From the UHGV virus genome UHGV-1381228: a stretch of DNA of 22,241 bases. The stretch is one strand, 5' to 3'. Below, one piece after another: positions 932 to 22,241 of the stretch; positions within the stretch are counted from its first letter, which is position 1, and the number at the start of each line of letters is the position of its first letter. This DNA comes from a virus. Under the pieces are notes generated by a model. It was not told the origin of the DNA and searched no databases. It was given only the letters and a program-made list of their open reading frames with translations. Made by a program: the position numbers and the translations under genes.

Positions 932-3441
932 TGCGGAATATCTCCGGAGAATCTCTGACGCTTCTGTGTCAGATTAAGAACAACGGGAGAACCATCATCT
1001 TTCAGCAGATAACCAGTACCAAGTTTCACCAGGTACTGACTATCGCCGTAACTTTGCAAACCATACTGACCAGGCGGTGTTTTTATCCCGGAGCCGACAA
1101 CTTGTTCATTCCAAGCCTGATTAACCTGCTTATCGAATTGCTCTGCAGACATTCCCCACGGCAAAAGGACATTCCCCATTCCGTTATAGTCATGCACGCC
1201 ACCTGTAGCTACGTTAACAGCCTGTTTCCAGACATCATTGTCAATTTCGCCTGATACCACGCCTTTTTTCGCCATCACACCAGCGTAATAATCCTTTGCG
1301 ATCTCGTATGCCATTGATGCGCCCTGAGCGTCACCAGCAAATGCATCCTTCACCATGTCAGAAAACTCAAGGCGAAGATCAGCATCTTTAGGCATCGGAA
1401 TACCTTTCGCATCATCAGTACCTTTACGAGCCGCCGCGCCAGCAAGAATTGTCTGCGCAGCGGTTTCAGGAGACACGGAAACATCCGGATTAAACCAGTT
1501 TTTTTCTGCCAAAATACCACCAGGCTTATCCATCAGTATCCCGGCAACGGCAGCAGATGGAGCGTTGGCACTGATCTGCTGTAGTGCTGACATATACACC
1601 TGCCCACCACCAGTGCTCTGCCTGATGGTATCGAGATATGCTGCCTGTTGGGAAACTGGAGCATCACGAAAGAAAACACCGATCTGATTGGCCTCGTCTT
1701 TGGAAAAGAACGTCAGTGGAGTGCCATATGACTTAGCAAGGTCACTGACCTGAGCGGCACGCAAGGCAACGCTCTGTCCAAAGTTATCCTTATTGCTCAT
1801 GTCGATAGGCTTTGCCTGTCGGGAGGCAAGAGAGAACTGCACAGGATCCGACTGCCGCTGCTTTATCACCTGATTTGCAGCCGAAACAACGTTGTCATAA
1901 AGAGTTGCGCGTGCCGCATACCCCTCCCCTGTATCACCAGTATCCGGGCGTAATTGCTCAACATATGCTGTAATGCTGCTTGTCGGCATGTTGCGGAAAG
2001 AGCCTATATACTGTCCGGCGATCTGCGTATTCTTAAACTCGGTATATCGCAGGTTTCCTTCTCTGACTCCATAAGCTGCAATAAAATCATCCTCACCAGG
2101 TGGGTTAGGAAATTCAATGCCACGCATATACGCAGCCGTCGCATCGCGAACCCGGCTGTCGAGCATCGTTTTATATTCAGCCTGCTGTTGTCTGGCTAGT
2201 GCATCAGTCTGTCGCAACACGCTGGCCTGATCTGATTCACTTAAAGCATCGAACCAGGCTACACCGGTATAACGTTTATTTTTTGTCGGTAGCTGAGAAA
2301 GCCCCAGCGCAGCACTAACACCTGCAGTTAACTGCTGATCACTGTATGGCTGGCTACCGTTTTCATGATGGATAATGGCTGCACAAAGCGCCTTCAGGGT
2401 ATCAGGATTTGATGCATCGAGAGGCTCATCAGCAGAAACGCCAAGTTGTTCGCACACTGCTTTGATATACGACATAGTGTCATTTTTATCAGTAGGCGGT
2501 GCCCAGCGATTAATTATCTCGCTGACGGTATCAATACCCTGCCGCTGATACGACATCAGGTTCCGCCCTAATGCACGAATACCGTGTTCAGGGGTTTCGA
2601 ATTTGGCAAAGCGACCATCATCACCAGTCTGCCCAACCCACGGATTAGTTTTGCTGTATTCAAGATTGCCGGGGTTATTGTTGCGTATACCGCGGGTACG
2701 ATCGGAAGAGCCACTATCTGCTACAGCACGGCGAGAACCAGCAGCAGTATCGCTTAACTCGCCGTTTTGCTGTCTTACCTGAAGATAGTTTGCTCCAATA
2801 GCATTTTGAGCAGTTGCTTTTGCTGTTGCTTCTTTAAACTCGATTTTCTTGGCCTGGATTTGCTCGTCACTCCAGCCATGTGCAATGCCGTAATCCTCAA
2901 TTTGCTGGAAAGTTTGCTTATTAGCCAATACGTATGCGGCGTTGTCGCCATACAATGCTGCGGCATTTTTACCATTGTTCAGCAGCGTAGCCTGAAACTG
3001 GCCTTCTTCGTAGGCATTTATTTGCCCTATCTCGTGCCGCCCGGCCTGCGTAGTGAACTGAATGCGCTGCTGCTGCGCCTGCTGCATGAAAGCATTACGA
3101 GCCTGTTCATCCGGCAGCGACATAGCCAGTTGTTCGACCTGAGCATCAAACTGCTGCGTATACTCCTGACCTTTTCCAATAGCATTTTTCCCTTTCAGGT
3201 TAAGCAAACCTGTTTCAGGGTTATTCAGCAGATCGCTGCTTATCTGGCTTAAGCTAAGAGAAGCATCCTGAGCCATAGCAACATTCGCACGCTGTTTTGC
3301 CTGCGCAATAATACCTGCATATTGCTCTGCAACATCGCCAAGTACATCACCGACATTTGGTGTCTGAAACGATGAGAATCCCTGCGTCGAAATCCCTCTG
3401 CTCTGAACCTGACGGCCCGATGTTGTTGGTACAACTGGCAT
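928..3441 (-). CDS. large virion internal/ejection protein (837 aa) with a possible cell-wall hydrolase-like central region
   Basis: 837-aa ORF in the tail/internal-protein operon; central segment GIRNNNPGNLEYSKTNPWVGQTGDDGRFAKFETPEHGIRALGRNLMSYQRQG resembles motifs of virion-associated peptidoglycan hydrolase domains (recalled, not searched). Confidence 0.5.
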   Translation of the reverse strand: MPVVPTTSGRQVQSRGISTQGFSSFQTPNVGDVLGDVAEQYAGIIAQAKQRANVAMAQDASLSLSQISSDLLNNPETGLLNLKGKNAIGKGQEYTQQFDAQVEQLAMSLPDEQARNAFMQQAQQQRIQFTTQAGRHEIGQINAYEEGQFQATLLNNGKNAAALYGDNAAYVLANKQTFQQIEDYGIAHGWSDEQIQAKKIEFKEATAKATAQNAIGANYLQVRQQNGELSDTAAGSRRAVADSGSSDRTRGIRNNNPGNLEYSKTNPWVGQTGDDGRFAKFETPEHGIRALGRNLMSYQRQGIDTVSEIINRWAPPTDKNDTMSYIKAVCEQLGVSADEPLDASNPDTLKALCAAIIHHENGSQPYSDQQLTAGVSAALGLSQLPTKNKRYTGVAWFDALSESDQASVLRQTDALARQQQAEYKTMLDSRVRDATAAYMRGIEFPNPPGEDDFIAAYGVREGNLRYTEFKNTQIAGQYIGSFRNMPTSSITAYVEQLRPDTGDTGEGYAARATLYDNVVSAANQVIKQRQSDPVQFSLASRQAKPIDMSNKDNFGQSVALRAAQVSDLAKSYGTPLTFFSKDEANQIGVFFRDAPVSQQAAYLDTIRQSTGGGQVYMSALQQISANAPSAAVAGILMDKPGGILAEKNWFNPDVSVSPETAAQTILAGAAARKGTDDAKGIPMPKDADLRLEFSDMVKDAFAGDAQGASMAYEIAKDYYAGVMAKKGVVSGEIDNDVWKQAVNVATGGVHDYNGMGNVLLPWGMSAEQFDKQVNQAWNEQVVGSGIKTPPGQYGLQSYGDSQYLVKLGTGYLLKDDGSPVVLNLTQKRQRFSGDIPQ

Positions 3442-3453
3442 CTTATTATCCCC

Positions 3454-3993
3454 TTATCGACCGGTTGGAGTGCCAACAGCAGCAGAAATCGGCGCAGCCT
3501 TCTGAGAGAACGGGCTCCACGTTCCGCCGCCCATCTGGTATGCACCGTATGCTTTTAGTGGTGCCGTTAACAAAGTGCTGGTCATCGATGATTTAGCAGC
3601 CGACTGAGCAGCAGCCCCCTGTGCCTGAGCATTCATTCCCTGAACCTGATACCCATATGCCTCACGCTGAGCATTATTCACTGTCGTTAACGCATCAAGA
3701 GTGCCGAACTGAGCATTATCCGCAAAAACGTCAAGAGCTGTTCCGCTACTTAATTCCGCACCGGTAGCCCCCATAGTGGCCGCCGCAGTGCCTGAGCGTT
3801 GACGCATTTCACGACGACGCTGATCCGCTTCAATATTCCCACGATTGATTGAATCCTGTGCCTGAGCTTCAGCAATTTCAGCATTCCGATCAGCTATGGC
3901 TGACTGGTATTTTGCCTGCTTGCTCTGGCTGTACATTGACGCGGCTGTGGATGCCACTGTGACGGCAACCAAAGCGATGGCTGGGTTACACAT
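3454..3993 (-). CDS. virion internal protein with N-terminal hydrophobic segment (179 aa)
   Basis: N-terminus AIALVAVTVASTAA is hydrophobic, followed by a charged coiled-coil-like region; position between tail tube-like gene and large internal protein. Confidence 0.45.
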   Translation of the reverse strand: MCNPAIALVAVTVASTAASMYSQSKQAKYQSAIADRNAEIAEAQAQDSINRGNIEADQRRREMRQRSGTAAATMGATGAELSSGTALDVFADNAQFGTLDALTTVNNAQREAYGYQVQGMNAQAQGAAAQSAAKSSMTSTLLTAPLKAYGAYQMGGGTWSPFSQKAAPISAAVGTPTGR

Positions 3994-4457: not shown

Positions 4458-6928
4458 CAGAACCCACCAACAGTAAGGCGAGGAATAACGGCAAGAACAG
4501 ACAGCGGCAACGGATCAAGCTGACGGATTTTTACACGTCCGTTTTTGCCCCAGTTACTGTCCAGTTTCACTTCTACTTTTCCGGTAGCATCATCAACAGG
4601 ATCATCGTAGAACTCGAATTCACGCTGTGGATATTCGTACCATTTACCGCCGGGCGTAGTCGCCCAGATGCCGCGACTGGCATTCACAACCAGAGTAACG
4701 GACGGGATCACCTGTTTTTTGTCCAGCAGCGTTTCCTGTCCGTTAATGTTGATATCCAGTGTTTCGAATTCAGCAGTTATTGGCAGGCCGATGTGCACTA
4801 CAGCCCCCGGTGATTCCAGCGTGACGGCACATCCGGAAACCACTTTCTGTGGTTCCACGTTCGCATCAGAGAGAATGTTTACGGTCTGGCCTTCAAGATG
4901 AGACAGGCCTCCAAATGTCCGGCGCGCCATCTGCCAGTTCGTGGTGGCCACATTCCTGAGGGATGGCGGGACGTTCCTGTTAGCACGAACCACTACAGCG
5001 GTATTGCTGGTTACAGAAATAATGTCGCAACGTAATTCTTTTGACACCTCATCGCCAGTATCAGGATCAGTTCCGGTATAAGGGAACTGTAGTTGCGCGC
5101 CGACATCACTACTGGTGAAGTACGCACCACCAGAAACACTGATTGTATATTCCGCGCGGTAATCCCATTCGCCAGAACCACCAGTGATGATCATCGTTCT
5201 GTCAGACGTATTTCTTCCATCATAGCTAAGGCCAGAATCAACAAAGAAAGCATCTTCATCGCTGGTAAATAAACGGCTGGACAGTCGCTCGATGTATCTC
5301 ACTGTTTGCCCGTTAACGGTTCGGTTAACGACGAAATACACCGCATCTTCATTGCCTTCGCTGATACTGCATGTGCTTTCATATTTTCCGGTACTGGATT
5401 GTGGTGCCCATGCAAAAACCTGCTGATCACGCAAATAGGTCATCACCAGTAATTTACCGTCATCACGGATGCAGAAGGCGCTGGAGTAAGGGACTATTGA
5501 GAAGCACCAGTCAACAATGCTGTGCTTCTGAAAAAGATGATTGGCAAGGATAGTAAGGTCGTTCCCCTGATAGCCGTCAACATCGAATGAGTAGGCCAGA
5601 TCACGGACAACACTGCCTTTCTCCTGGACGAACAGAGCAATATTCGCCACGGCAATTGGTGGGACATTGCTCGAGCCATTTGATCCCTGAGAGCTGAATG
5701 CAAATGATGATGGGGTAAGCACTTTGTTCTGGTCGCCAGTGATGACGTACTCACCTCCGGAAGTCAGCGCCACCAGCGAACCAACATCAATCAGGTGACG
5801 GATCTCATTAACCTGACGCCCGGCATAGGTGTAGATAATTCTGTCGTCATCCTGCGTAGGATTGCTTTTGCCAAAATCCTTATAATCCCCAGTACGGCTG
5901 GCCCAGATAGTCTGAGGGAACGCAGTCGATGCGGCGAAGTAAAGACGCTGTTGATAATAAACAACAGTGCCAGGATAACCATTAACACTGTTCCAGGCAT
6001 ATTTAGCCCATTTATAGCTGGCATTATCCTCGCCAACGACCTGCGAAGGGATATAGGAAATCACCTCGGCAGTTGCAGTAGTGCCATTTGCAGCAGTGAT
6101 ACGGGCAATGCCAAAACCACTGTGCAGATACTCCCACTCAATGCCAGTATCATCATCACCGGATCCGCCCCAGCCATCCCATGATGTGCCTTCTGTATGC
6201 GAAGGGCGCAAAGTACCTGTTTTGCCTGCTGTAACGGCGCGATAGTAGTTACTGTCTGCACGGCGAATATCGCCAATCGACGTACTCTTACTGGTTTCCC
6301 ATACAGGTACTGAATCCACTGCAGGCTGTTCCAGATAGAACAATTTGCCTACCTGCTCCGCGCCAAAAATAGAGACGCTTGCCGTTAACGTAATTGTCCC
6401 GGTGCTGGCGCTGGCATAAACCGTCACTGACTCATCAATATTGATATCTTCAAATGGCCCGTTCTTCGTTACCACATCAACCAGTTGCCAGTTGTCATGC
6501 GCATAGCGACGCAACTCTTTCGGCGGGTATGCCGGATGAACAAGCGTAAGCACGTCTGCGCTTTGCGTGAATTTAATTCGGAACAGATCGGCTTCAGTAT
6601 ATGGCGTGGCAATTTCATAAATAACATTGCTGCTGTTCAGCACCAACGCACCATCTTTGATAACGCGCATGTACTGGTGTCCGAACTCCAGAGCATAGGT
6701 CTGAACCGTCGAGAACTGGAACGGGATCAGGCGGCATTTCCGATTTGGGTATTTGGCGGCACCGACAAAACGCGTACCAGGTCGATTCTCAACGCCGCCA
6801 TACTGCCGCACGATAAAGTTATCGCACTTGCGCAATGCCACCTGGTACTTCGCCATGTCGATACGTCCGTACAACGACGGTCCAATCTCACCACCAGCAA
6901 AGCTGGGCTGGATCCAACTGATAGCCAT
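4457..6928 (-). CDS. putative tail tube/nozzle protein (tail tubular protein B-like, 823 aa)
   Basis: 823-aa ORF immediately after a ~200-aa tail-tubular-A-like gene, the size and order seen in T7-like short-tailed phages; assignment by synteny and size only. Confidence 0.4.
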   Translation of the reverse strand: MAISWIQPSFAGGEIGPSLYGRIDMAKYQVALRKCDNFIVRQYGGVENRPGTRFVGAAKYPNRKCRLIPFQFSTVQTYALEFGHQYMRVIKDGALVLNSSNVIYEIATPYTEADLFRIKFTQSADVLTLVHPAYPPKELRRYAHDNWQLVDVVTKNGPFEDINIDESVTVYASASTGTITLTASVSIFGAEQVGKLFYLEQPAVDSVPVWETSKSTSIGDIRRADSNYYRAVTAGKTGTLRPSHTEGTSWDGWGGSGDDDTGIEWEYLHSGFGIARITAANGTTATAEVISYIPSQVVGEDNASYKWAKYAWNSVNGYPGTVVYYQQRLYFAASTAFPQTIWASRTGDYKDFGKSNPTQDDDRIIYTYAGRQVNEIRHLIDVGSLVALTSGGEYVITGDQNKVLTPSSFAFSSQGSNGSSNVPPIAVANIALFVQEKGSVVRDLAYSFDVDGYQGNDLTILANHLFQKHSIVDWCFSIVPYSSAFCIRDDGKLLVMTYLRDQQVFAWAPQSSTGKYESTCSISEGNEDAVYFVVNRTVNGQTVRYIERLSSRLFTSDEDAFFVDSGLSYDGRNTSDRTMIITGGSGEWDYRAEYTISVSGGAYFTSSDVGAQLQFPYTGTDPDTGDEVSKELRCDIISVTSNTAVVVRANRNVPPSLRNVATTNWQMARRTFGGLSHLEGQTVNILSDANVEPQKVVSGCAVTLESPGAVVHIGLPITAEFETLDININGQETLLDKKQVIPSVTLVVNASRGIWATTPGGKWYEYPQREFEFYDDPVDDATGKVEVKLDSNWGKNGRVKIRQLDPLPLSVLAVIPRLTVGGF

Positions 6929-12724: not shown

Positions 12725-12739
12725 TTACCTTTCAGGTAA
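12725..12739. repeat. palindrome TTACCT-TTC-AGGTAA (copy 3 of a recurring motif), about 20 bp downstream of a consensus TTGACA hexamer
   Basis: Perfect 6-bp arms with a 3-nt spacer; the same half-sites occur twice at 19919-19995; TTGACA at about 12703-12708. Confidence 0.5.
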
Positions 12740-13061: not shown

Positions 13062-13138
13062 GTGGCATTAGCTCAGTTGGACAGAGCAACCGCCTTCTAA
13101 GCGGTTGGTCGCAGGTTCGAATCCTGCATGCCACGCCA
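13062..13138 (+). tRNA. tRNA-Arg (anticodon TCT, reads AGA), 77 nt including encoded CCA
   Basis: Cloverleaf read by hand: acceptor GTGGCAT/ATGCCAC, D-arm GCTC/GAGC, anticodon stem ACCGC/GCGGT with loop CTTCTAA, T-arm GCAGG-TTCGAAT-CCTGC, discriminator G then CCA. Confidence 0.9.
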
Positions 13139-13675: not shown

Positions 13676-13687
13676 GTGACATGTCAC
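13676..13687. repeat. 12-bp perfect palindrome GTGACATGTCAC (copy 1, downstream of terL)
   Basis: Identical 14-mer CGTGACATGTCACA also present at 15940-15953; the two copies sit on either side of terS-terL. Confidence 0.6.
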
Positions 13688-13761: not shown

Positions 13762-15237
13762 TTAAGCATAGGGATCGTAATCTGTGATGGCCTTGCCTTG
13801 CTGGTTCTGCTGACCGGGAATTCGCAGACGCTTCGACACAGGGAACGCAAACGTCAGCAGTAGCGCATCGCCTTTACCAGGAGAACGCCCAAGTCGCTCT
13901 TTGATATCTTCCTTCGGTTCGATAACGATTTTACCGTCCACTCGAACTTTGTACTCTGCTGCCGACAGGTCGTCCGCTGTTTCCTGGTCATCCAGCATGC
14001 CGCCCAGCCTCAGCCATGTCTTGCATGAATTGAACATCTCCCCACGCTTGTTGAGCATCTGCGGGTCAGTAGACGCGCCACCGAACGGAACAAGTTGCCA
14101 TGTACGACCCCATCCGTCACCGATTGACTTCAGACCGGTTCCGTAACCGAAGTCGATGAACACCGCGTCAGCCTGATACTGGTCTTCAAAGTCAGCGATA
14201 CGCTTCGCCATAATCAGATCGTCGGTAGTCTTGTTGCCAGTCCACAGCACCTTACTGTGTAGCCCCTGCCGCAGGTATATCACCGCGTCATCAACGCCTG
14301 AATATGCCGGGTCAACACCGATTATCACCGGAGCATGCGCCACCTGCGCAGCGGTTACCACCCGTTTCATTGCCTCATCAGTAAGACCGGTAGGGATAAA
14401 CTGCAATTCAGATGCATCAGGGAATATGCCGCGCACACGGATTTTAACGAAGTCGCTGTCTTCCCCGTAGTCATCAACCCATTTCTGCAACTGCTGTTTG
14501 TTAGTGCCTTCCACCGTTCGGCTGTCAATCTGCGCAGTTTTCCAGCGGTGTTTATATTTGCGGAAACATTCGCGGAAACGTCCGGTATTACGCGTCGGGT
14601 TTCCGAACGCCACCCAGATAATCTCAGTGTCTTCGTCCGTTAGTGCACCCTCGGCAACTTCCCACACCAGATCCGCAATGTTCGACGCTTCATCGAATAC
14701 CACGATGATGCGTTTGCGCTCGTTGTGTAGTCCGGCGAATGCCTCAGTGTTGTGCTCAGACCAGGGGATTGCGTCAGCTCGCCACCGCTTGTCGTGCCCA
14801 GGATCATTGCTGTACATCGCGGTAGCGGTACAGGTAAACCAGTCTTTCGTGATAGCAAGGTTCGACCACTTGATAATTTCCGGCCAGGTCTTCGTTCGTA
14901 GCTGGTTGTCGGTGTTGGCGGTCACCACGACCTTACAATCCTCGCAAGTGGACATGCCCCAGTTGATCAGCATTGAGATGAATGCGGATTTACCAATACC
15001 GTGACCCGAAGCACGTGCCAGCATAAGCGGCTGATAGCGCGTCTCTGGATTCTGCAGGTGATCACGTATCTCTCGGAACGCATCAGCCTGCCACTGACGT
15101 GGGCCGGTAGCATGTGCCAGTTCAGTCCCCTCTTCCCCCCACGGGAACGCATAGAGGGCATAGCCAAGCGGATCGTGAGTGAACCCTGCAATATCCTCGA
15201 TCAACTGCTCTTCAGGAGATAACGCTGTATCTGTCAC
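13762..15237 (-). CDS. terminase large subunit (491 aa)
   Basis: Walker-A-like GHGIGKS near the N-terminus and a C-terminal nuclease-type motif VIIGVDPAYSGVDDAVI; size and position upstream of portal; start overlaps the terS stop (GTGA). Confidence 0.85.
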   Translation of the reverse strand: MTDTALSPEEQLIEDIAGFTHDPLGYALYAFPWGEEGTELAHATGPRQWQADAFREIRDHLQNPETRYQPLMLARASGHGIGKSAFISMLINWGMSTCEDCKVVVTANTDNQLRTKTWPEIIKWSNLAITKDWFTCTATAMYSNDPGHDKRWRADAIPWSEHNTEAFAGLHNERKRIIVVFDEASNIADLVWEVAEGALTDEDTEIIWVAFGNPTRNTGRFRECFRKYKHRWKTAQIDSRTVEGTNKQQLQKWVDDYGEDSDFVKIRVRGIFPDASELQFIPTGLTDEAMKRVVTAAQVAHAPVIIGVDPAYSGVDDAVIYLRQGLHSKVLWTGNKTTDDLIMAKRIADFEDQYQADAVFIDFGYGTGLKSIGDGWGRTWQLVPFGGASTDPQMLNKRGEMFNSCKTWLRLGGMLDDQETADDLSAAEYKVRVDGKIVIEPKEDIKERLGRSPGKGDALLLTFAFPVSKRLRIPGQQNQQGKAITDYDPYA

Positions 15238-15830
15238 TGATTACCATCCTGACGTTCTTTGAGTCGCTTCCTGGCTGCTGCTATGCGATCAGCAATTGTC
15301 ACATTCACATTAACATCCAGACGTTCTTTGAACGCGTTGACATCAACATGCTTACCAATCAGCTCAAGGTTCTTCACCTTGTCAGGCCATTTAATTTTTT
15401 TGAGGATTGTCTCTATCGAATCCTCGTTCATGTTCATGATGGTCGATGACAGATCAAAGCCACTAAGCGTAGTGCGCCAGATTTTCGGCCACTCACGGAT
15501 TGGTTTAAGGCTCCCATCGTCGTTGAGGATGTCGATCACGTCCATCTGGTCGATCTCCACCAGGCGCATGAGAACGTAATCAGCACTGACGCGCATTCGT
15601 TTGTTGCGCTCCTCCATCAACTCGGCAATCCGTTTTTGAATGCGTTCATCGCGCATCATGACACTGGCTTTAACTGCCGCTGTATTTGGGGAGAATCCTG
15701 CGTTAATCGCTGCCTGAGTCTGGTTTTCAGGCGTTTTGATGTATGACTGGCAATAAGCCTCCTGCATTGCTGTTAGTGGCTTAAATTGCGTTGATTTGCG
15801 TTTATAGGTTTTAGGTTCAGCAGGCATCAT
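15234..15830 (-). CDS. terminase small subunit (about 198 aa from ATG at 15830)
   Basis: Gene immediately upstream of and overlapping terL; the track start at 15908 (TTG) would place a terminator hairpin inside the ORF, so the tandem ATG ATG at 15830 (MMPAEPKTYKRK) is preferred. Confidence 0.6.
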   Translation of the reverse strand: MMPAEPKTYKRKSTQFKPLTAMQEAYCQSYIKTPENQTQAAINAGFSPNTAAVKASVMMRDERIQKRIAELMEERNKRMRVSADYVLMRLVEIDQMDVIDILNDDGSLKPIREWPKIWRTTLSGFDLSSTIMNMNEDSIETILKKIKWPDKVKNLELIGKHVDVNAFKERLDVNVNVTIADRIAAARKRLKERQDGNQ

Positions 15831-15872
15831 AACCACCGTGGTAATAGTTACCGTTGTGGTAATAGTACCATG

Positions 15873-15899
15873 CAAAATAAAGCCGCCATAGTTGGCGGC
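15873..15899 (-). terminator. intrinsic terminator-like hairpin immediately upstream of terS (GCCGCCA-ACTA-TGGCGGC then UUUAUUUUG)
   Basis: Perfect 7-bp GC-rich inverted repeat followed by a T-rich run on the minus strand, between the Cys-rich protein gene and terS. Confidence 0.55.
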
Positions 15900-15940
15900 A
15901 GTATTCAAAACCCATCAAATTCATCATGCATAATCTACTC

Positions 15941-15952
15941 GTGACATGTCAC
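15941..15952. repeat. 12-bp perfect palindrome GTGACATGTCAC (copy 2, upstream of terS)
   Basis: Identical to 13676-13687; overlaps the stop codon of the 115-aa gene. Confidence 0.6.
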
Positions 15953-16296
15953 ACTATTAATTTCGTTTCATGCCAGCCTTTAGTCACCCAGCATTGCGAG
16001 TCACCATTACACGGGCATGAATTAACTGGAACTCTCTCGCCGCACTTACCGCAACATTTTCTGCTGATCGATTTTATACGCCCGCGCACGCGTGCATCAT
16101 CCTGGCGGATCAGTAACGCGATGTACTCGGCCATTTCATAGGGATCGCGACCAGGGCGCCGGGCGGCGCAGTTCCGCGCCAGCATTTCCTGCTCCTGCTT
16201 ATCCAGCACCAGTTCAATTTTGCGCTCACCGGCGGCGGACTGCCGAGCGCGCTGCGCGGCTTTGCGTTCTGCGGGGGATTTAGCCACGAATCGCAC
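15949..16296 (-). CDS. small basic protein with C-terminal Cys-rich zinc-binding-like motif (115 aa); candidate regulator
   Basis: C-terminus KCCGKCGERVPVNSCPCNGDSQC; basic N-terminus; last gene before the terminator and terS. Confidence 0.45.
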   Translation of the reverse strand: MRFVAKSPAERKAAQRARQSAAGERKIELVLDKQEQEMLARNCAARRPGRDPYEMAEYIALLIRQDDARVRGRIKSISRKCCGKCGERVPVNSCPCNGDSQCWVTKGWHETKLIV

Positions 16297-19570: not shown

Positions 19571-19915
19571 TCAGAACTCTTCGATGTTCCAGCCACCACC
19601 TGCTTTCTTTGGTTTAACCGTTACCCCGATGATTCGGAACGGATACTGATCTGCGGCGACTTTGGTTTTCACCCTGGCGTCGTCGGTCCAGAAACCTTTC
19701 ACTTCGTGCAGTTCCATCTCTCCGGTGGCGAGCATCACAGCGAAATCGGGCGTATAGAACGTGTTGTCAGCTAACCGCAGCTTGATACCCTCGAATCGAT
19801 ACCAGGCGATTTCCCCTGCACGTTTACGCTGCTCAAGGTGCTGGCAATACGCAGATTCTGTTTTGTTCATCTGGCCTGTTTTGAGTCGACCAAGAGCCTG
19901 TATCTGTTTTCTCAT
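19571..19915 (-). CDS. conserved phage hypothetical protein (114 aa), possibly DUF1064-like
   Basis: First gene downstream of the P-like gene; its Shine-Dalgarno AGAGGT lies inside a TTACCT-N3-AGGTAA palindrome; family assignment from memory only. Confidence 0.45.
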   Translation of the reverse strand: MRKQIQALGRLKTGQMNKTESAYCQHLEQRKRAGEIAWYRFEGIKLRLADNTFYTPDFAVMLATGEMELHEVKGFWTDDARVKTKVAADQYPFRIIGVTVKPKKAGGGWNIEEF

Positions 19916-19918
19916 GAT

Positions 19919-19933
19919 TTACCTCTAAGGTAA
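19919..19933. repeat. palindrome TTACCT-CTA-AGGTAA (copy 1), overlapping the ribosome-binding site of the 19571..19915 gene
   Basis: Perfect 6-bp arms with a 3-nt spacer; the AGGTAA arm provides the Shine-Dalgarno 5 nt before the ATG at 19915. Confidence 0.6.
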
Positions 19934-19980
19934 TTGAAAACCATATAAGACACGAAATCAATAGAGTTTAGAATATTTTG

Positions 19981-19995
19981 TTACCTTGTAGGTAA
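19981..19995. repeat. palindrome TTACCT-TGT-AGGTAA (copy 2), 62 bp from copy 1
   Basis: Same half-sites, different spacer; in the intergenic region between the P-like gene and the next operon. Confidence 0.6.
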
Positions 19996-20032: not shown

Positions 20033-20809
20033 TTACTTGATAAATCCTGCCGCCTTTCCCCGCCTGTATTCCTCCATCAGCCACTGCGCCGGTGTTATTC
20101 CCCCAAGGGTGGCGGCGTTAGGCATGCACCCGAAACTTCGCCCTGGTGGATGGTAAACGTCTCTCCCTGTGTCCGGAGGTGTACTCATGGGCTCTGGCTT
20201 TGCCTGTATGCTGATCACCGGATCGGGTATCTGCTGTCCGGAAGCCACCTTTTTCGCCCAATCATCGAGCAGCCTGCGCGCGTGTTTCTCAACCTCACTC
20301 TCGCTAAGCTGGCGCTGATACATTGCACGACGGGTATCACATACGACCCAGTACATAACCGGATGCCGCCACGGGAATCTTTCGGGACCACCAGGATATA
20401 AACTTTTTTCCTTGCTGTACCGGTGAAACTCCGCCATCACATCGTCAATGGTGACGCCAAGAACCATCTTGCTGTCTTTGCACCACTTGATGAATTGCCC
20501 TGGCGACGGCCAGAACGGAGATTCACTGGCGCGGGCGTGGCGCATACCAGCGTTAACCTGTTCCATTGTAGTGATCCCATTCTCCAGAAACGCAAGCATC
20601 CATTGCTTACGGAATTCATTAAGTTTGTTCTGCTCCCTTATGGTCGAAACGCTTGCAGGAAATGCAGCCTGTAACTGGACAAATAGTTCATTGAAAATTC
20701 TAGCAACCTGCTCCTTTTTGCCATTGCTGTCACGCCGCTCTTCATGCACAGCAACACCATGCTCACGTAAGCGATCGTACTCATTGAGAAGTTCTGGAGT
20801 TGATTTCAT
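20033..20809 (-). CDS. replication protein P-like helicase loader (258 aa)
   Basis: Segment FVQLQAAFPASVSTIREQNKLNEFRKQWMLAFLENGITTMEQVNAGMRHARASESPFWPSPGQFIKWC closely parallels lambda P as recalled (...ATFPASLANRDQNEVNEIRRQWVLAFRENGITTMEQVNAGMRVARRQNRPFLPSPGQFVAWC). Confidence 0.75.
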   Translation of the reverse strand: MKSTPELLNEYDRLREHGVAVHEERRDSNGKKEQVARIFNELFVQLQAAFPASVSTIREQNKLNEFRKQWMLAFLENGITTMEQVNAGMRHARASESPFWPSPGQFIKWCKDSKMVLGVTIDDVMAEFHRYSKEKSLYPGGPERFPWRHPVMYWVVCDTRRAMYQRQLSESEVEKHARRLLDDWAKKVASGQQIPDPVISIQAKPEPMSTPPDTGRDVYHPPGRSFGCMPNAATLGGITPAQWLMEEYRRGKAAGFIK

Positions 20810-21611
20810 CCCACACCCCTTCTATCCAGTCAGTGTTATTCCAGTCAAGCTCATCGCTTTTCCCGGCATTTTTTGATTTTCCCCTGATATGATTTACGTG
20901 CCTGGCGAATTTTTGTTCCCACTGAACCTGCGTGAACACTTTGCCCTCAGCCATCCAGTAATCCCGGAATGCAGCAAGTTCAGCAGGTGTAAATTCCGGT
21001 TCCGGCAGGGCCGTTCCCCACAGCGCAGCACGCCGCCGAAAATCTGGCGACGGTAGCCAGCCATCTGTCATCGGAAATTTCCCGATGGGTTCACTCAGGC
21101 CATCCAGAAATTCAGGTTCTGCCACCTGCAACGGCGTACTGTTCGCTTCACTGGTCGGAGCACCCTCGCGCACGTGCGCTATGTGTGGGGTTTTATATAT
21201 ATCTTCCTCTTCCTCTTCCTCTGGTAACTCCTTTTGTAACGCTGTTGGCGTTACTTTTTGCGTTACTCGTTTTCTATGCTCTGCCACTCTTCTATTCGTA
21301 AGTGCACGTTTTTTCGATGATTCTCCATTATGTCGCTCAAAGTTTGGAAGAATTAGTTTGCCGTCATGATAAGCAAGCCATCCGACGCTAATGAGGGCGT
21401 CAGCAAATCCTGTAATAAAAGCGAGTCTATCAAGTACTCCTTTTGTAACGCTGCCAGCGTTACCGTCTATTGTTTGCTGGTCAGCCCATGCCCATATACG
21501 AACCAGCTTTCCAAGAACAGCATCTGGATCAATACCCAGAATTTCTGCTATCTGAAAAATTTCAGGTTTATCAGGAGTGATAACTTCAACCTTAATCCAG
21601 CTGCTTGCCAT
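20781..21611 (-). CDS. replication initiator (O-position protein) with DnaT-like C-terminal domain (about 276 aa from ATG at 21611)
   Basis: C-terminal GKFPMTDGWLPSPDFRRRAALWGTALPEPEFTPAELAAFRDYWMAEGKVFTQVQWEQKFARH parallels E. coli DnaT as recalled; directly upstream of and overlapping the P-like gene; carries internal iteron-like repeats; ATG at 21611 has GAGGGG upstream (the track start is a GTG at 21629). Confidence 0.65.
   Translation of the reverse strand: MASSWIKVEVITPDKPEIFQIAEILGIDPDAVLGKLVRIWAWADQQTIDGNAGSVTKGVLDRLAFITGFADALISVGWLAYHDGKLILPNFERHNGESSKKRALTNRRVAEHRKRVTQKVTPTALQKELPEEEEEEDIYKTPHIAHVREGAPTSEANSTPLQVAEPEFLDGLSEPIGKFPMTDGWLPSPDFRRRAALWGTALPEPEFTPAELAAFRDYWMAEGKVFTQVQWEQKFARHVNHIRGKSKNAGKSDELDWNNTDWIEGVWDEINSRTSQ
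21190..21465. repeat. candidate replication-origin region: AT-rich tract plus palindromic iteron-like repeats inside the initiator gene
   Basis: AT-rich run about 21191-21201; GTAACGC-TGTTG-GCGTTAC at 21236-21254; extra GCGTTAC at 21260-21266; GTAACGCTG-C-CAGCGTTAC at 21445-21463; 18-bp direct repeat ACTCCTTTTGTAACGCTG at 21227-21244 and 21436-21453 in different codon phases. Confidence 0.5.
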
Positions 21612-21804
21612 AGGTTTCCCCTCTTGCACTCTTTAGTGCACAAGCAAATTCATTACGATGGCGGTTGGCGCTATTCATTGCACATTCAACACATGTTCCG
21701 TTCAGAACATACCTTTCAGAGAGATGGCCGTGACGGCACCGCTTTCCTGTGAAATAGCGATTTAACCCGGCTTTTGCGGCCTCCATTCTGGTTACTATCT
21801 TCAA
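21592..21804 (-). CDS. small zinc-ribbon-like protein (64-70 aa), start uncertain
   Basis: Contains RCRHGH...CVEC; sits between the Cro-like gene/terminator and the initiator, the position cII occupies in lambda, but is not cII-like. The track start is TTG at 21804; an internal ATG is at 21786. Confidence 0.4.
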   Translation of the reverse strand: MKIVTRMEAAKAGLNRYFTGKRCRHGHLSERYVLNGTCVECAMNSANRHRNEFACALKSARGETYGKQLD

Positions 21805-21952: not shown

Positions 21953-22183
21953 TCATGAGTAGAAGAAGTATGCCAGTTCTGCTTTTGAGCGCAGCCATTG
22001 TCTTGTTTTACAGGCTTTAAAAAGCCCATTCATCAATACTTTACCTGGCATTTTGCGCTTGCCTGTTAAGTGAGTCTGGATATAGTGACTCGTCGTTCCG
22101 GCTTCCTGTGCGAAGGCTTCACGCTCATCCGGAGTAAGTGCAAGCCAGTGCTTTTTGAAATCGAAATGTCCGTTATCGCTCAT
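21953..22183 (-). CDS. Cro-like helix-turn-helix regulator (about 77 aa)
   Basis: HTH-like segment DEREAFAQEAGTTSHYIQTHLTGKRKMPGK resembles the Cro/YdaS-type pattern; first gene of the rightward operon. The track ORF extends into the adapter (MCIRDR); the real start is ATG at 22183. Confidence 0.45.
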   Translation of the reverse strand: MSDNGHFDFKKHWLALTPDEREAFAQEAGTTSHYIQTHLTGKRKMPGKVLMNGLFKACKTRQWLRSKAELAYFFYS

Positions 22184-22193
22184 AGCTATTGCC

Positions 22194-22241
22194 CTGTCTC
22201 TTATACACATCTGACGCTGCCGACGATATGCAGTGTGTAGA
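22194..22241. other. Illumina Nextera adapter remnant (Tn5 mosaic end CTGTCTCTTATACACATCT plus read-1 primer, index and P5 start); not biological
   Basis: CTGTCTCTTATACACATCTGACGCTGCCGACGA is the reverse complement of the Nextera read-1 adapter; followed by an 8-nt index-like TATGCAGT and GTGTAGA. Confidence 0.9.

Follow-up and report, generated by a model that had tools for sequence, protein, structure and literature searches.

Which element switches on the packaging genes at the junction between the early and late genes of this phage? The window (the whole 22,241-nt stretch analysed, from UHGV virus genome UHGV-1381228) belongs to a phiV10/epsilon15-like temperate podophage (Uetakevirus). 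The genes of its terS region lie on the minus strand, as do the elements at issue here: a hairpin, a pair of 11-mers, a 115-aa ORF and terS itself. A preliminary description read the stretch in front of terS as a transcription-control region and stated that no Q-type or lysis gene separates the replication genes from terS. The terminator and the protein-binding half-sites behind the first statement are both real, and the second is true of every ORF scanned.

The junction of the early rightward operon with the packaging and morphogenesis genes is probably a terminator followed by a Rep-controlled promoter and two tandem operators leading into terS. As read here, the controller would be the prophage repressor. 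The arrangement in front of terS is already known, being annotated in epsilon15 (NC_004775.2) and phiV10 (NC_007804.2), and the window holds the E. coli version. DNA at least 80% identical to the control region is found in 697 of 5,426 complete E. coli genomes. A tRNA was the sole match in an Rfam scan of the window. The window end is an adapter artefact, and the rep gene falls outside it. Published work on ZX5, on the epsilon15 packaging structure and on phiV10 infection is silent on late control.

Terminator and terS start

The control region contains the following features, in the order of minus-strand transcription.

15949..16296, minus strand: gene for a small basic Cys-rich protein (phiV10p55 / epsilon15 gp49 / N15 gp46 family), 115 aa from GTG 16296, likely 112 aa from GTG 16287
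15941..15952: perfect palindrome GTGACATGTCAC, containing the TGA stop (15949-15951) of the Cys-rich gene; proposed binding site
15874..15899, minus strand: predicted intrinsic terminator closing the early rightward operon, with stem-loop 15899-15882 and T-tract 15881-15874
15862..15870, minus strand: putative extended -10, TGG-TACTAT, with TG at 15870-15869 and hexamer at 15867-15862
15848..15862: predicted repressor operator A, TTACCACAACGGTAA, with exact palindromic half-sites
15830..15844: predicted repressor operator B, TTACCACGGTGGTTA, with one mismatch
15234..15827, minus strand: terS, small terminase of the Terminase_2 type (Pfam PF03592, E 1e-29), first gene of its unit, starting at the second ATG

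The stem-loop GCCGCCA-ACTA-TGGCGGC has 7 pairs, 6 of them G-C, and a loop of 4, and is followed by the T-tract TTTATTTT. This is the form of an intrinsic terminator, a G+C-rich stem-loop and T-run at an operon 3′ end. It lies about 50 nt past the stop codon of the Cys-rich protein gene, and 43 nt separate the end of the T-tract from the first terS ATG. Folding of the terminator region as RNA gives z = -4.25. A 2.3-kb scan returned 4 terminator-like matches against 2.0 ± 1.5 expected, a count that is not significant by itself. The hairpin is kept in E. coli, Salmonella, Citrobacter and Superficieibacter relatives. The epsilon15 and phiV10 records carry a terminator feature at the equivalent place, 3′ of the homologous gene and at the 3′ end of the record. 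The GC-rich hairpin with a U-tract that the preliminary description placed about 40 nt before terS was thus found, is conserved and is annotated in both phages.

Relatives carrying a UmuD-like insert have no terminator at all. In two clades, Klebsiella and Enterobacter, the DNA directly upstream of the terS operators holds a LexA-box promoter and a UmuD-like gene and no terminator, so something must stop read-through into terS in the lysogen.

The terS start had been placed at 15830. Comparison of relatives favours the second ATG, at 15827, because the first ATG is lost in one relative (L040) and epsilon15 has a single ATG. A longer TerS, of 224 aa from TTG 15908 as in phiV10p01, would turn the hairpin and repeats into coding sequence for 26 N-terminal residues. 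The open frame exists, and it is this long form that the phiV10 and SPN1S records give. However, some relatives have 1-nt indels or wholly unrelated sequence upstream and are alike from ATGCC onward, no ribosome-binding site precedes the TTG, and the Pfam match begins only at residue 19 of the short form. The chance that the hairpin and repeats are coding is negligible, and the long terS in the phiV10 and SPN1S records is probably an annotation error.

Dispersed predicted operators and the prophage repressor

The 11-mer ACTATTACCAC occurs in exactly two copies, 15866-15856 and 15848-15838, 18 nt apart. Allowing one mismatch, it has 3 matches in the window against 0.15 expected, and 0 of 100 shuffles reached 3. 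The direct repeat reported earlier is therefore an exact pair, and the GGTAA/TTACC half-sites noted with it are its key part. Each copy consists of the left half of a 15-bp palindrome, TTACC-N5-GGTAA, plus three flanking bases, and as an 11-mer it is not conserved in epsilon15. The direct repeat is a by-product of two tandem predicted operators: epsilon15 has one annotated site before terS, whereas the window has a second, near-perfect copy, which creates the repeat.

At one mismatch or fewer, TTACC-N5-GGTAA has 5 sites in the window against 0.29 expected. Operator A is the positional homologue of a "protein_bind: repressor" feature at 12-27 of the epsilon15 record, just 5′ of terS and one of seven ATTACC-N5-GGTAAT sites given that label. 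Operator B overlaps the Shine-Dalgarno sequence GGTGG (15837-15833) and the first terS ATG. It reads ATTAC(C/T)-N5-GGT(A/T)A in most relatives and is degenerate in the Klebsiella clade. A few relatives (L077, L016) have a changed -10 hexamer or operator half-site. Across genera there is hardly any change in the half-sites and free variation in the 5-nt spacer, as expected of a DNA operator and not of an RNA stem.

Two further places in the window carry the same palindrome.

12725..12739: predicted operator TTACCTGAAAGGTAA (minus-strand reading), exact, in front of the small gene located before the portal gene
19919..19995: second copy of the terminator/operator/promoter/operator design by sequence match, with operators at 19981-19995 and 19919-19933

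The first is homologous to the epsilon15 "repressor" feature at 2931-2947. In the second, a terminator (20027-20016) with a T-tract follows a P-like gene. Then come the operator at 19981-19995, the promoter-like pair TTGATT-N17-TTCAAT, and the operator at 19919-19933, which ends 4 nt short of a DUF1064 gene. The same layout is repeated in TL-2011b and epsilon15.

Relatives carry many more copies. TL-2011b has 10 exact sites and 14 at one mismatch or fewer, against 0.07 and 1.4 expected, and all are intergenic; epsilon15 has 11 exact copies and SPN1S has 10. The window resembles the epsilon15 record, taken together with that of phiV10, in the order of gp49 homologue, terminator, operator and terS, in the hairpin, in the operator ATTACC-N5-GGTAAT, and in the places of further operators, behind the replication genes and ahead of the portal block. 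The window ends before rep, and in these relatives the sites flank the repressor gene. In TL-2011b they stand at 5172, 5234, 5946 and 5994 around gp10, a Rep-like gene, two between it and the cro-like gene and two beyond its other side. In epsilon15 they stand at 32479-32632 and 33341-33388. TL-2011b gp10 is a clear homologue of the SPC32H repressor, with a match to structure 5D50 (Rep/Ant structures 5D4Z and 5D50) at E 6.6e-42. Rep homologues in the phage collection are almost confined to Uetakevirus-like phages and related E. coli and Klebsiella prophage records.

We infer that the TTACC-N5-GGTAA palindromes are operators of the prophage repressor, a homologue of SPC32H Rep. The assignment draws on the epsilon15 annotation, itself a prediction, and on the distribution of the sites, which have the form of the seven annotated in epsilon15 and recur between genes at the heads of transcription units. 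A passage in PMC9638917 describes SPC32H Rep as a tetramer that binds palindromic sites, and a tetramer would fit operators in pairs.

Repeats upstream of the terS gene are also known from SPP1, and the sites might instead form a pac site bound by the small terminase. They lie directly upstream of a Terminase_2-type terS, and the phiV10, SPN1S and epsilon15 records were all opened within this intergenic region. Since the phiV10 record stops precisely where the preceding gene has its stop codon, its origin looks like a cosmetic choice. Uniqueness, and travel together with the TerS type, would be expected of a pac site, but this motif is dispersed genome-wide, the immunity region included, and it is missing before terS in phiES15, vB_EcoM-611R5 and Aeromonas phage 56, which have TerS relatives at 48-60% identity. 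We rejected the pac reading on the dispersal and on this absence, and consider it very improbable. A boxB-like RNA element built from TTACC and GGTAA (5-bp stem, 5-nt loop) was also rejected, since co-variation is never seen in the stems and the loops are free to change.

A putative repressor-controlled promoter

A sigma-70 promoter of the extended -10 type appears to lie directly 3′ of the T-tract. Its motif, TGnTAnTAT, is kept in nearly all of the 46 distinct upstream sequences, both those with a terminator and those with a UmuD-like gene 5′ of it. It ends on the first base of operator A, and at other operator pairs a -10-like hexamer likewise ends at the first T of the operator. The predicted transcription start is near 15855, within operator A. 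This conserved motif abutting operator A is why the region is read as a terminator, then a repressor-controlled promoter, then terS. No usable -35 was found upstream of the extended -10 at terS; this and the mediocre TACTAT hexamer (4 of 6) mean that the promoter may be weak or need a helper. The epsilon15 and phiV10 records annotate neither the extended -10 nor the palindrome GTGACATGTCAC.

The proposed control would run as follows. The intrinsic terminator would end early transcription just past the last early gene. The extended -10 promoter, TGG-TACTAT, would act from right behind the T-tract, and the two tandem palindromes, starting at the last base of the -10, would cover the start site, the 5′ leader, the ribosome-binding site and the first ATG. 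In the lysogen, Rep on operators A and B would keep terS and the genes downstream silent. On removal of Rep, which in SPC32H occurs via the antirepressor Ant, the terS promoter would fire.

The operators might act as roadblocks only, with no promoter, so that terS is transcribed by read-through once the repressor is gone. They do lie between the terminator and the start codon, where no -35 was found, and in Klebsiella and Enterobacter read-through into terS must be stopped in the lysogen. A known precedent is mycobacteriophage L5, whose gp71 binds "stoperators"; there, as with phage P1 C1 and as proposed here, one repressor acts on many operators dispersed over the genome in short intergenic gaps that head transcription units. 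However, the L5 sites are asymmetric, orientation-dependent and act on elongation, whereas those of the window are symmetric and mostly overlap promoters. Against roadblocks alone, TGnTAnTAT is conserved exactly at the -10 position and nowhere else upstream, the strong terminator of most relatives would block read-through, and the same genomes hold other operator pairs that clearly bracket -35/-10 pairs. We regard this alternative as unlikely and keep to a repressor-controlled promoter. Because at least one other unit is headed by the same terminator/operator/promoter/operator design, the phage appears to be silenced unit by unit, by one repressor at dispersed operators.

The Cys-rich protein and the GTGAC-NN-GTCAC palindrome

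The 115-aa ORF that had been described exists (15949-16296), and its true start is likely 9 nt later, giving 112 aa: most homologues are listed at 112 aa, and the second GTG, at 16287, has a GGAG 8 nt ahead of it. The cysteine cluster is real. Its spacing is C-x2-C-x8-C-x7-C, at the C-terminus, and conservation of these four Cys extends to the N15 gp46 group. A model of the protein resembles ribbon-helix-helix (RHH) proteins of the Arc/MetJ/CopG class (MazE, ParD and TacA antitoxins, PutA, NikR, TraM, AmrZ). RHH proteins are known mostly as repressors or accessory DNA binders. The predicted model differs from them in an added basic N-terminal helix and the Cys4 cluster; no RHH-family profile matched in Pfam or NCBIfam searches, and a toxin partner gene is absent. 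The protein probably binds DNA through an RHH fold and carries a metal site in its C-terminal Cys4 cluster.

Pfam, NCBIfam and PDB sequence searches with the single protein and with a 36-sequence profile gave only chance-level zinc-finger hints. A whole-library profile search found a small family of 209 representatives, whose few longer members are fusions to unrelated pieces and look like gene-calling artefacts. Databases label the family "transcriptional regulator", and no function or evidence behind the label was found.

One reading in the preliminary description made this protein an antiterminator or activator at a terminator in front of the late operon. Spelled out, it would take RNA polymerase past the hairpin, or switch on a late promoter via the repeats, like Q at lambda tR′. 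In lambda, the last early gene (Q) is followed by a terminator and then by the late genes. The window matches that gene order and has no Q-like gene in its early region, GTGACATGTCAC lies just upstream of terminators at up to three operon ends per genome, a placement that would fit a termination-modifying factor, and a weak match to a promoter, GTGACA-N18-CATGAT, begins within the palindrome. Several observations stand against this. There is no sequence, profile or fold similarity to Q proteins (lambda, 21 and 82 types), no Pfam match or characteristic zinc-finger spacing of the Ogr/Delta or Mor/C proteins, and no match to other regulators; the fold matches are RHH. The repeats belong to a separate, genome-wide operator family tied to the repressor gene (window 5, TL-2011b 14), and homologues of the protein also occur in loci that lack TTACC-N5-GGTAA sites. 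A Q-type factor should always stand directly before the late promoter and terminator and be the sole such factor, but ZF40 and N15 have the homologue away from the late genes together with a separate Q-like gene, and P2-like phages have it behind the gene for replication protein GpA. No terminator is present at all in relatives with the UmuD-like insert. Downstream of the promoter-like match, the stretch from palindrome to terminator shows no conservation from the E. coli clade to the Salmonella clade. A Q-like role is accordingly quite unlikely, and the repeats are better read as predicted operators of Rep.

The palindrome gives a different lead. A second copy lies elsewhere in the window.

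13676..13687: second GTGACATGTCAC palindrome, between the stop of a plus-strand 113-aa ORF (13671) and a two-way terminator-like hairpin, 75 nt past the terL stop

Besides these two exact copies in the window, Uetakevirus genomes hold 2-3 each, against 0.005-0.04 expected. It lies at ORF ends in 55 of 58 distinct contexts. It is found at or on the stop codon of homologues of the Cys-rich gene in ZF40, N15, P2-like Yersinia phages and five other enterobacterial prophages, and such stop-codon overlap occurs in six or more phage lineages. The spacer between GTGACATGTCAC and the terminator differs by about 19 nt in length between the window and epsilon15/phiV10 and is unrelated in sequence. A full-text literature search for the palindrome sequence returned no paper. 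An upstream activator site of the terS promoter was rejected, as the distance ranges from about 70 to more than 400 nt with a terminator or a whole gene between.

On balance, this recurrence argues for the small Cys-rich protein family and GTGAC-NN-GTCAC being a regulator-and-site pair. The pair would be common to the unrelated temperate lineages Uetakevirus, N15-like phages, ZF40 and P2-like Yersinia phages, and undescribed. Since its apparent partner palindrome adjoins terminators, the protein may act there. It is conceivable, though doubtful, that it controls events at palindrome-flanked terminators, either as read-through linking early, packaging and structural units or as a roadblock; a roadblock may shield the core operons against SOS-controlled promoters and accessory genes nearby. 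The antiterminator idea may survive here in weaker form, as a minority reading. If true, this would be DNA-site-directed termination control unlike N, Q or put.

The control region as such matters little, as its epsilon15 and phiV10 counterpart had been annotated before. The palindrome pairing is a modest new lead that provides a concrete handle on the small Cys-rich protein family. The operator layout suggests a phage group that dispenses with a classical late switch and adopts a simple arrangement, in which each unit, including the packaging and head genes, would have its own repressor-controlled promoter behind a terminator.

Phage identity and gene order

Escherichia phages Phi05_1387 B and EC.W1-9 share 98.7% identity with a 751-nt stretch around the region; for TL-2011b and phiv142-3 the figure is 91%, over 84% or more of that stretch. 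Further matches are phiV10, Tyrion, SPN1S, and Klebsiella and Enterobacter Uetakeviruses. On these sequence matches the window is assigned to a phiV10/epsilon15-like temperate podophage. DNA of the region is found at 80% identity or more in 697 of 5,426 complete E. coli genomes. Genes of interest all lie on the minus strand, in this order:

20781–21629 (−), O-like replication gene
20033–20809 (−), P-like replication gene
(−), DUF1064 gene, Ea22-like genes, Mom-like gene and DUF551 gene
(−), 40-aa membrane ORF
15949–16296 (−), 115-aa Cys-rich ORF, followed by a 118-nt gap
(−), terS (Terminase_2, E 1e-29), then terL
(−), after a 1.3-kb accessory stretch, portal gene

The accessory stretch holds a tRNA-Arg (anticodon TCT) at 13062–13138 (+), opposite to the phage genes. 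Between the cro-like and replication genes, a 70-aa Cys/His-rich ORF (…GKRCRHGHLSERYVLNGTCVEC…; 21592–21804, −) matches phrog_1081 (function unknown) and is possibly another small zinc-binding regulator encoded in the early operon. The sequence TCGTCGGCAGCGTCAGATGTGTATAAGAGACAG (22197–22229, minus-strand reading), which we take to be the Illumina Nextera (Tn5 mosaic-end) read-1 adapter, joins phage sequence 14 nt ahead of the cro-like gene's ATG. This makes roughly the last 45 nt of the window an assembly artefact; ORF 21953–22210 truly starts at 22183, and its apparent 'MCIRDRAIA' beginning is spurious.

Predicted terminator, operators and promoter upstream of terS

The GC-rich hairpin with a T-tract described upstream of terS, GCCGCCA-ACTA-TGGCGGC (15899–15882) plus TTTATTTT (15881–15874), qualifies as a terminator and is the dominant structure when the region is folded in silico (z = −4.25). 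terS probably starts at its second ATG (15827); the first is absent in one relative, and epsilon15 has a single ATG. Annotated TerS of phiV10 (record 41–715) and SPN1S (1–669) is 222–224 aa, starts upstream of the hairpin, and reads across hairpin and operators (window 15828–15908). A 224-aa TerS, with the repeats as coding sequence, is contradicted by 1-nt indels and wholesale replacement of this stretch in relatives.

The 11-mer ACTATTACCAC is directly repeated, in exactly two copies 18 nt apart; allowing one mismatch, it has 3 window matches (0.15 expected). Gaps between the Cys-rich gene and terS were aligned from prophages of Citrobacter, Klebsiella, Superficieibacter, Pseudocitrobacter, Erwinia and Samsonia, and the region upstream of terS was compared in a larger set of 46 distinct sequences. 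The conserved unit in the aligned gaps is not the 11-mer but the inverted repeat TTACC-N5-GGTAA, with near-invariant half-sites and freely varying spacers (ACAAC, ATAAC, AAAAC, AAAAT, TAAAA, TGCAT, TTCAT, GCGCC). Such a pattern, fixed half-sites around a free spacer, is typical of operator DNA recognised by a protein dimer; in an RNA stem, changes would be expected to compensate one another. The 11-mer comprises each site's left half and three flanking bases. Because the two left halves differ in epsilon15 (ACTATTACCAA vs ATTATTACTTC), the direct repeat as such is assigned as lineage-specific. TTACC-N5-GGTAA has 5 matches in the window (0.29 expected), and copies are located as follows:

15848–15862, site A, exact
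15830–15844, site B, one mismatch, overlapping the ribosome-binding site and first ATG of terS
12725–12739, upstream of the small gene preceding the portal gene
19919–19933 and 19981–19995, between the P-like and DUF1064 genes

The complete TL-2011b genome has 10 exact copies (0.07 expected) and 14 at one mismatch or fewer (1.4 expected), all intergenic. Each side of gp10, the HTH repressor-like gene, has two of them; a further two follow the P-like gene and another two precede terS. Others are found ahead of int, ahead of the portal block (one) and, in several copies, around the Bro-N and tailspike genes. Exact copies number 11 in epsilon15 and 10 in SPN1S. Such dispersal contradicts a pac-site reading. 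The epsilon15 reference record carries seven 'protein_bind: repressor / lysogeny' features, all ATTACC-N5-GGTAAT, and the one at 12–27, just before terS (47), is homologous to site A by position. The repeats are thus predicted operators of the prophage repressor, Rep, as the epsilon15 annotation implies. Behind this assignment stand the distribution of the sites and the epsilon15 annotation, which is itself predictive. In E. coli relatives the repressor-like protein is a match for the solved structure of the SPC32H repressor (5D50; E 6.6e-42). Between the E. coli and Salmonella clades, conservation is higher in its N-terminal, DNA-binding half, which would fit one operator common to both. SPC32H Rep is described in PMC9638917 as a tetramer that binds palindromic sites, which fits the occurrence of operators in pairs. 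Also against the pac-site reading, the palindrome is absent upstream of terS in phiES15, vB_EcoM-611R5 and Aeromonas phage 56 (TerS 48–60% identical). Aeromonas phage 56 (L167 ~1400–1500) has a terminator upstream of its related terS, then ATTACC … GGTAAC half-sites at 14-nt spacing; this could be a coincidence or a remote trace of the design seen here.

A conserved block, G(C/T)(A/G)TGnTA(C/G/T)TAT-TACC, begins a few bases before site A. TGnTAnTAT is retained in nearly all of the 46 sequences, whether a terminator or the end of an inserted UmuD-like gene lies upstream. The block probably represents an extended −10 promoter with no −35 (TG, 15870–15869; TACTAT, 15867–15862). As the last base of TACTAT is the first T of site A, transcription is predicted to start near 15855, within the operator. 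That the operators are a pure roadblock, with no promoter here, is improbable. A like arrangement follows the P-like gene: a terminator (20027–20016 and T-run), an operator, TTGATT-N17-TTCAAT, and a second operator, which shares its first T with the last of TTCAAT and ends 4 nt before the start codon. TL-2011b and epsilon15 share this layout at their leftward early promoter and after their replication genes. The recurring design would be a terminator, a repressor-controlled promoter and a first gene. Packaging genes would be insulated from early transcription by the terminator, silenced directly by the prophage repressor, and fired once it is removed. The features described for the proposed late-gene control region are confirmed, and their interpretation is partly supported: this is a control point at the head of the packaging genes, with a genuine intrinsic-terminator sequence. 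The repeats belong to a genome-wide palindrome annotated 'repressor' in epsilon15, and the Cys-rich protein is not tied to them. The finding as described is not new, and such an arrangement is usual in these phages.

The Cys-rich protein family

The 115-aa ORF and its cysteine cluster are both real. The gene probably starts at 16287, since most listed homologues are 112 aa and GGAG lies 8 nt upstream of the second GTG. The protein matches phrog_536 ('transcriptional regulator', E 6e-54). No Pfam, NCBIfam or PDB-sequence match was detected using the single sequence or a profile. The family is small (209 representatives at 50% clustering), with no informative fusions among these representatives. 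In an alignment with the N15 gp46 group (~36% identity), an RRPGRxPY motif is retained, as are five cysteines, of which four form C-x2-C-x8-C-x7-C in the C-terminal third. The AlphaFold model has a pLDDT of only 69, and Foldseek returned no match with it. From modelling, the protein may well be a DNA binder of the ribbon-helix-helix (RHH) type, with a small tail that would bind metal. It is regarded as neither Q-type nor Ogr-type, contrary to the suggested antiterminator or late activator, and the genomic company of its homologues argues against a dedicated late-gene role. Downstream of the homologue, ZF40 has NinB and an HNH gene and then, as a distinct gene, a Q-like one. The N15 homologue, gene 46, is distant from both Q-like gene 40 and the late genes. 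P2-like Yersinia phages encode it downstream of the replication protein GpA gene. Klebsiella and Enterobacter Uetakeviruses have a UmuD-like gene, with a LexA-box promoter of its own, between the homologue and terS.

The GTGAC-NN-GTCAC palindrome

The TGA stop of the Cys-rich gene lies within a perfect palindrome, GTGACATGTCAC (15941–15952). GTGAC-NN-GTCAC is found on or a few bases from the homologue's stop in ZF40, N15 (GTGACTGGTCAC), P2-like Yersinia phages (GTGACGCGTCAC, 14 of the 15 distinct loci listed) and five further enterobacterial prophages, which differ in their downstream neighbours. Coding bases make up just 4 of the 12, so constraint on the protein does not account for it. Each Uetakevirus genome has 2–3 exact copies (0.005–0.04 expected). 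Further copies were located as follows:

Window, 13676–13687, with a plus-strand 113-aa ORF on one side and, just after terL, a two-way terminator-like hairpin on the other
epsilon15 (L025), 2142, 19517 and 39612, the three copies between them marking the end of gp49, the end of the last structural gene gp18 and a position just after terL
TL-2011b (L023), 11500 and 32282, one of them downstream of the antirepressor (Ant) gene
N15 (L106), 28550, 33237 and 39269

Among IMG/VR relatives, a perfect-stem terminator lies within 45 nt in 51 of 70 distinct contexts, and the palindrome falls at, or within 60 nt after, an ORF end in 55 of 58. One N15 copy is ~24 nt upstream of the promoter-like pair TTGACG-N18-TAGAGT, which precedes gene 32 ('transcriptional repressor') and gene 30 ('anti-repressor Ant'). 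GTGAC-NN-GTCAC thus falls at gene and operon ends next to intrinsic terminators and frequently encloses a TGA stop; none of the records examined annotates it.

Klebsiella, Enterobacter, Pseudocitrobacter and Erwinia relatives have an extra gene between the palindrome and the terS promoter (L004 1832–2286, L006 1821–2288, L013 2848–3314, L016 ~3060–3500), UmuD-like according to a Klebsiella phage record. A LexA box (TACTGTTTAAATGTACAGTA) overlaps the TTGACT-N17-TATACT promoter of the insert. The terminator is missing from all these loci, so the predicted SOS-induced promoter would face terS with only repressor operators between. Consensus LexA boxes are present in TL-2011b (CTGTATAAATATACAG, L023 ~35545–35565) and epsilon15 (CTGTATAAACATACAG, L025 ~19840–19860), both where a small minus-strand gene and the tailspike/tail-fibre gene diverge, compatible with SOS control of a small gene in these phages. 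P2-like Yersinia phages (L009, L107–L155) were inspected 20–110 nt downstream of the homologue's stop codon. There, a second partial palindrome copy (GCGCGTCAC or GTGTGACGTG) follows GTGACGCGTCAC, and in about half of the distinct loci TACTGTATA-type LexA-box-like sequences come next, so the homologue's gene appears to sit just before an SOS-controlled promoter.

The Cys-rich protein and GTGAC-NN-GTCAC are somewhat favoured as a cognate pair. The pair could form a roadblock or insulator where operons end, or repress accessory promoters next to it. That it modulates termination, which is what survives of the antiterminator idea in the preliminary description, is unlikely. The pairing of protein and palindrome is a small new lead.
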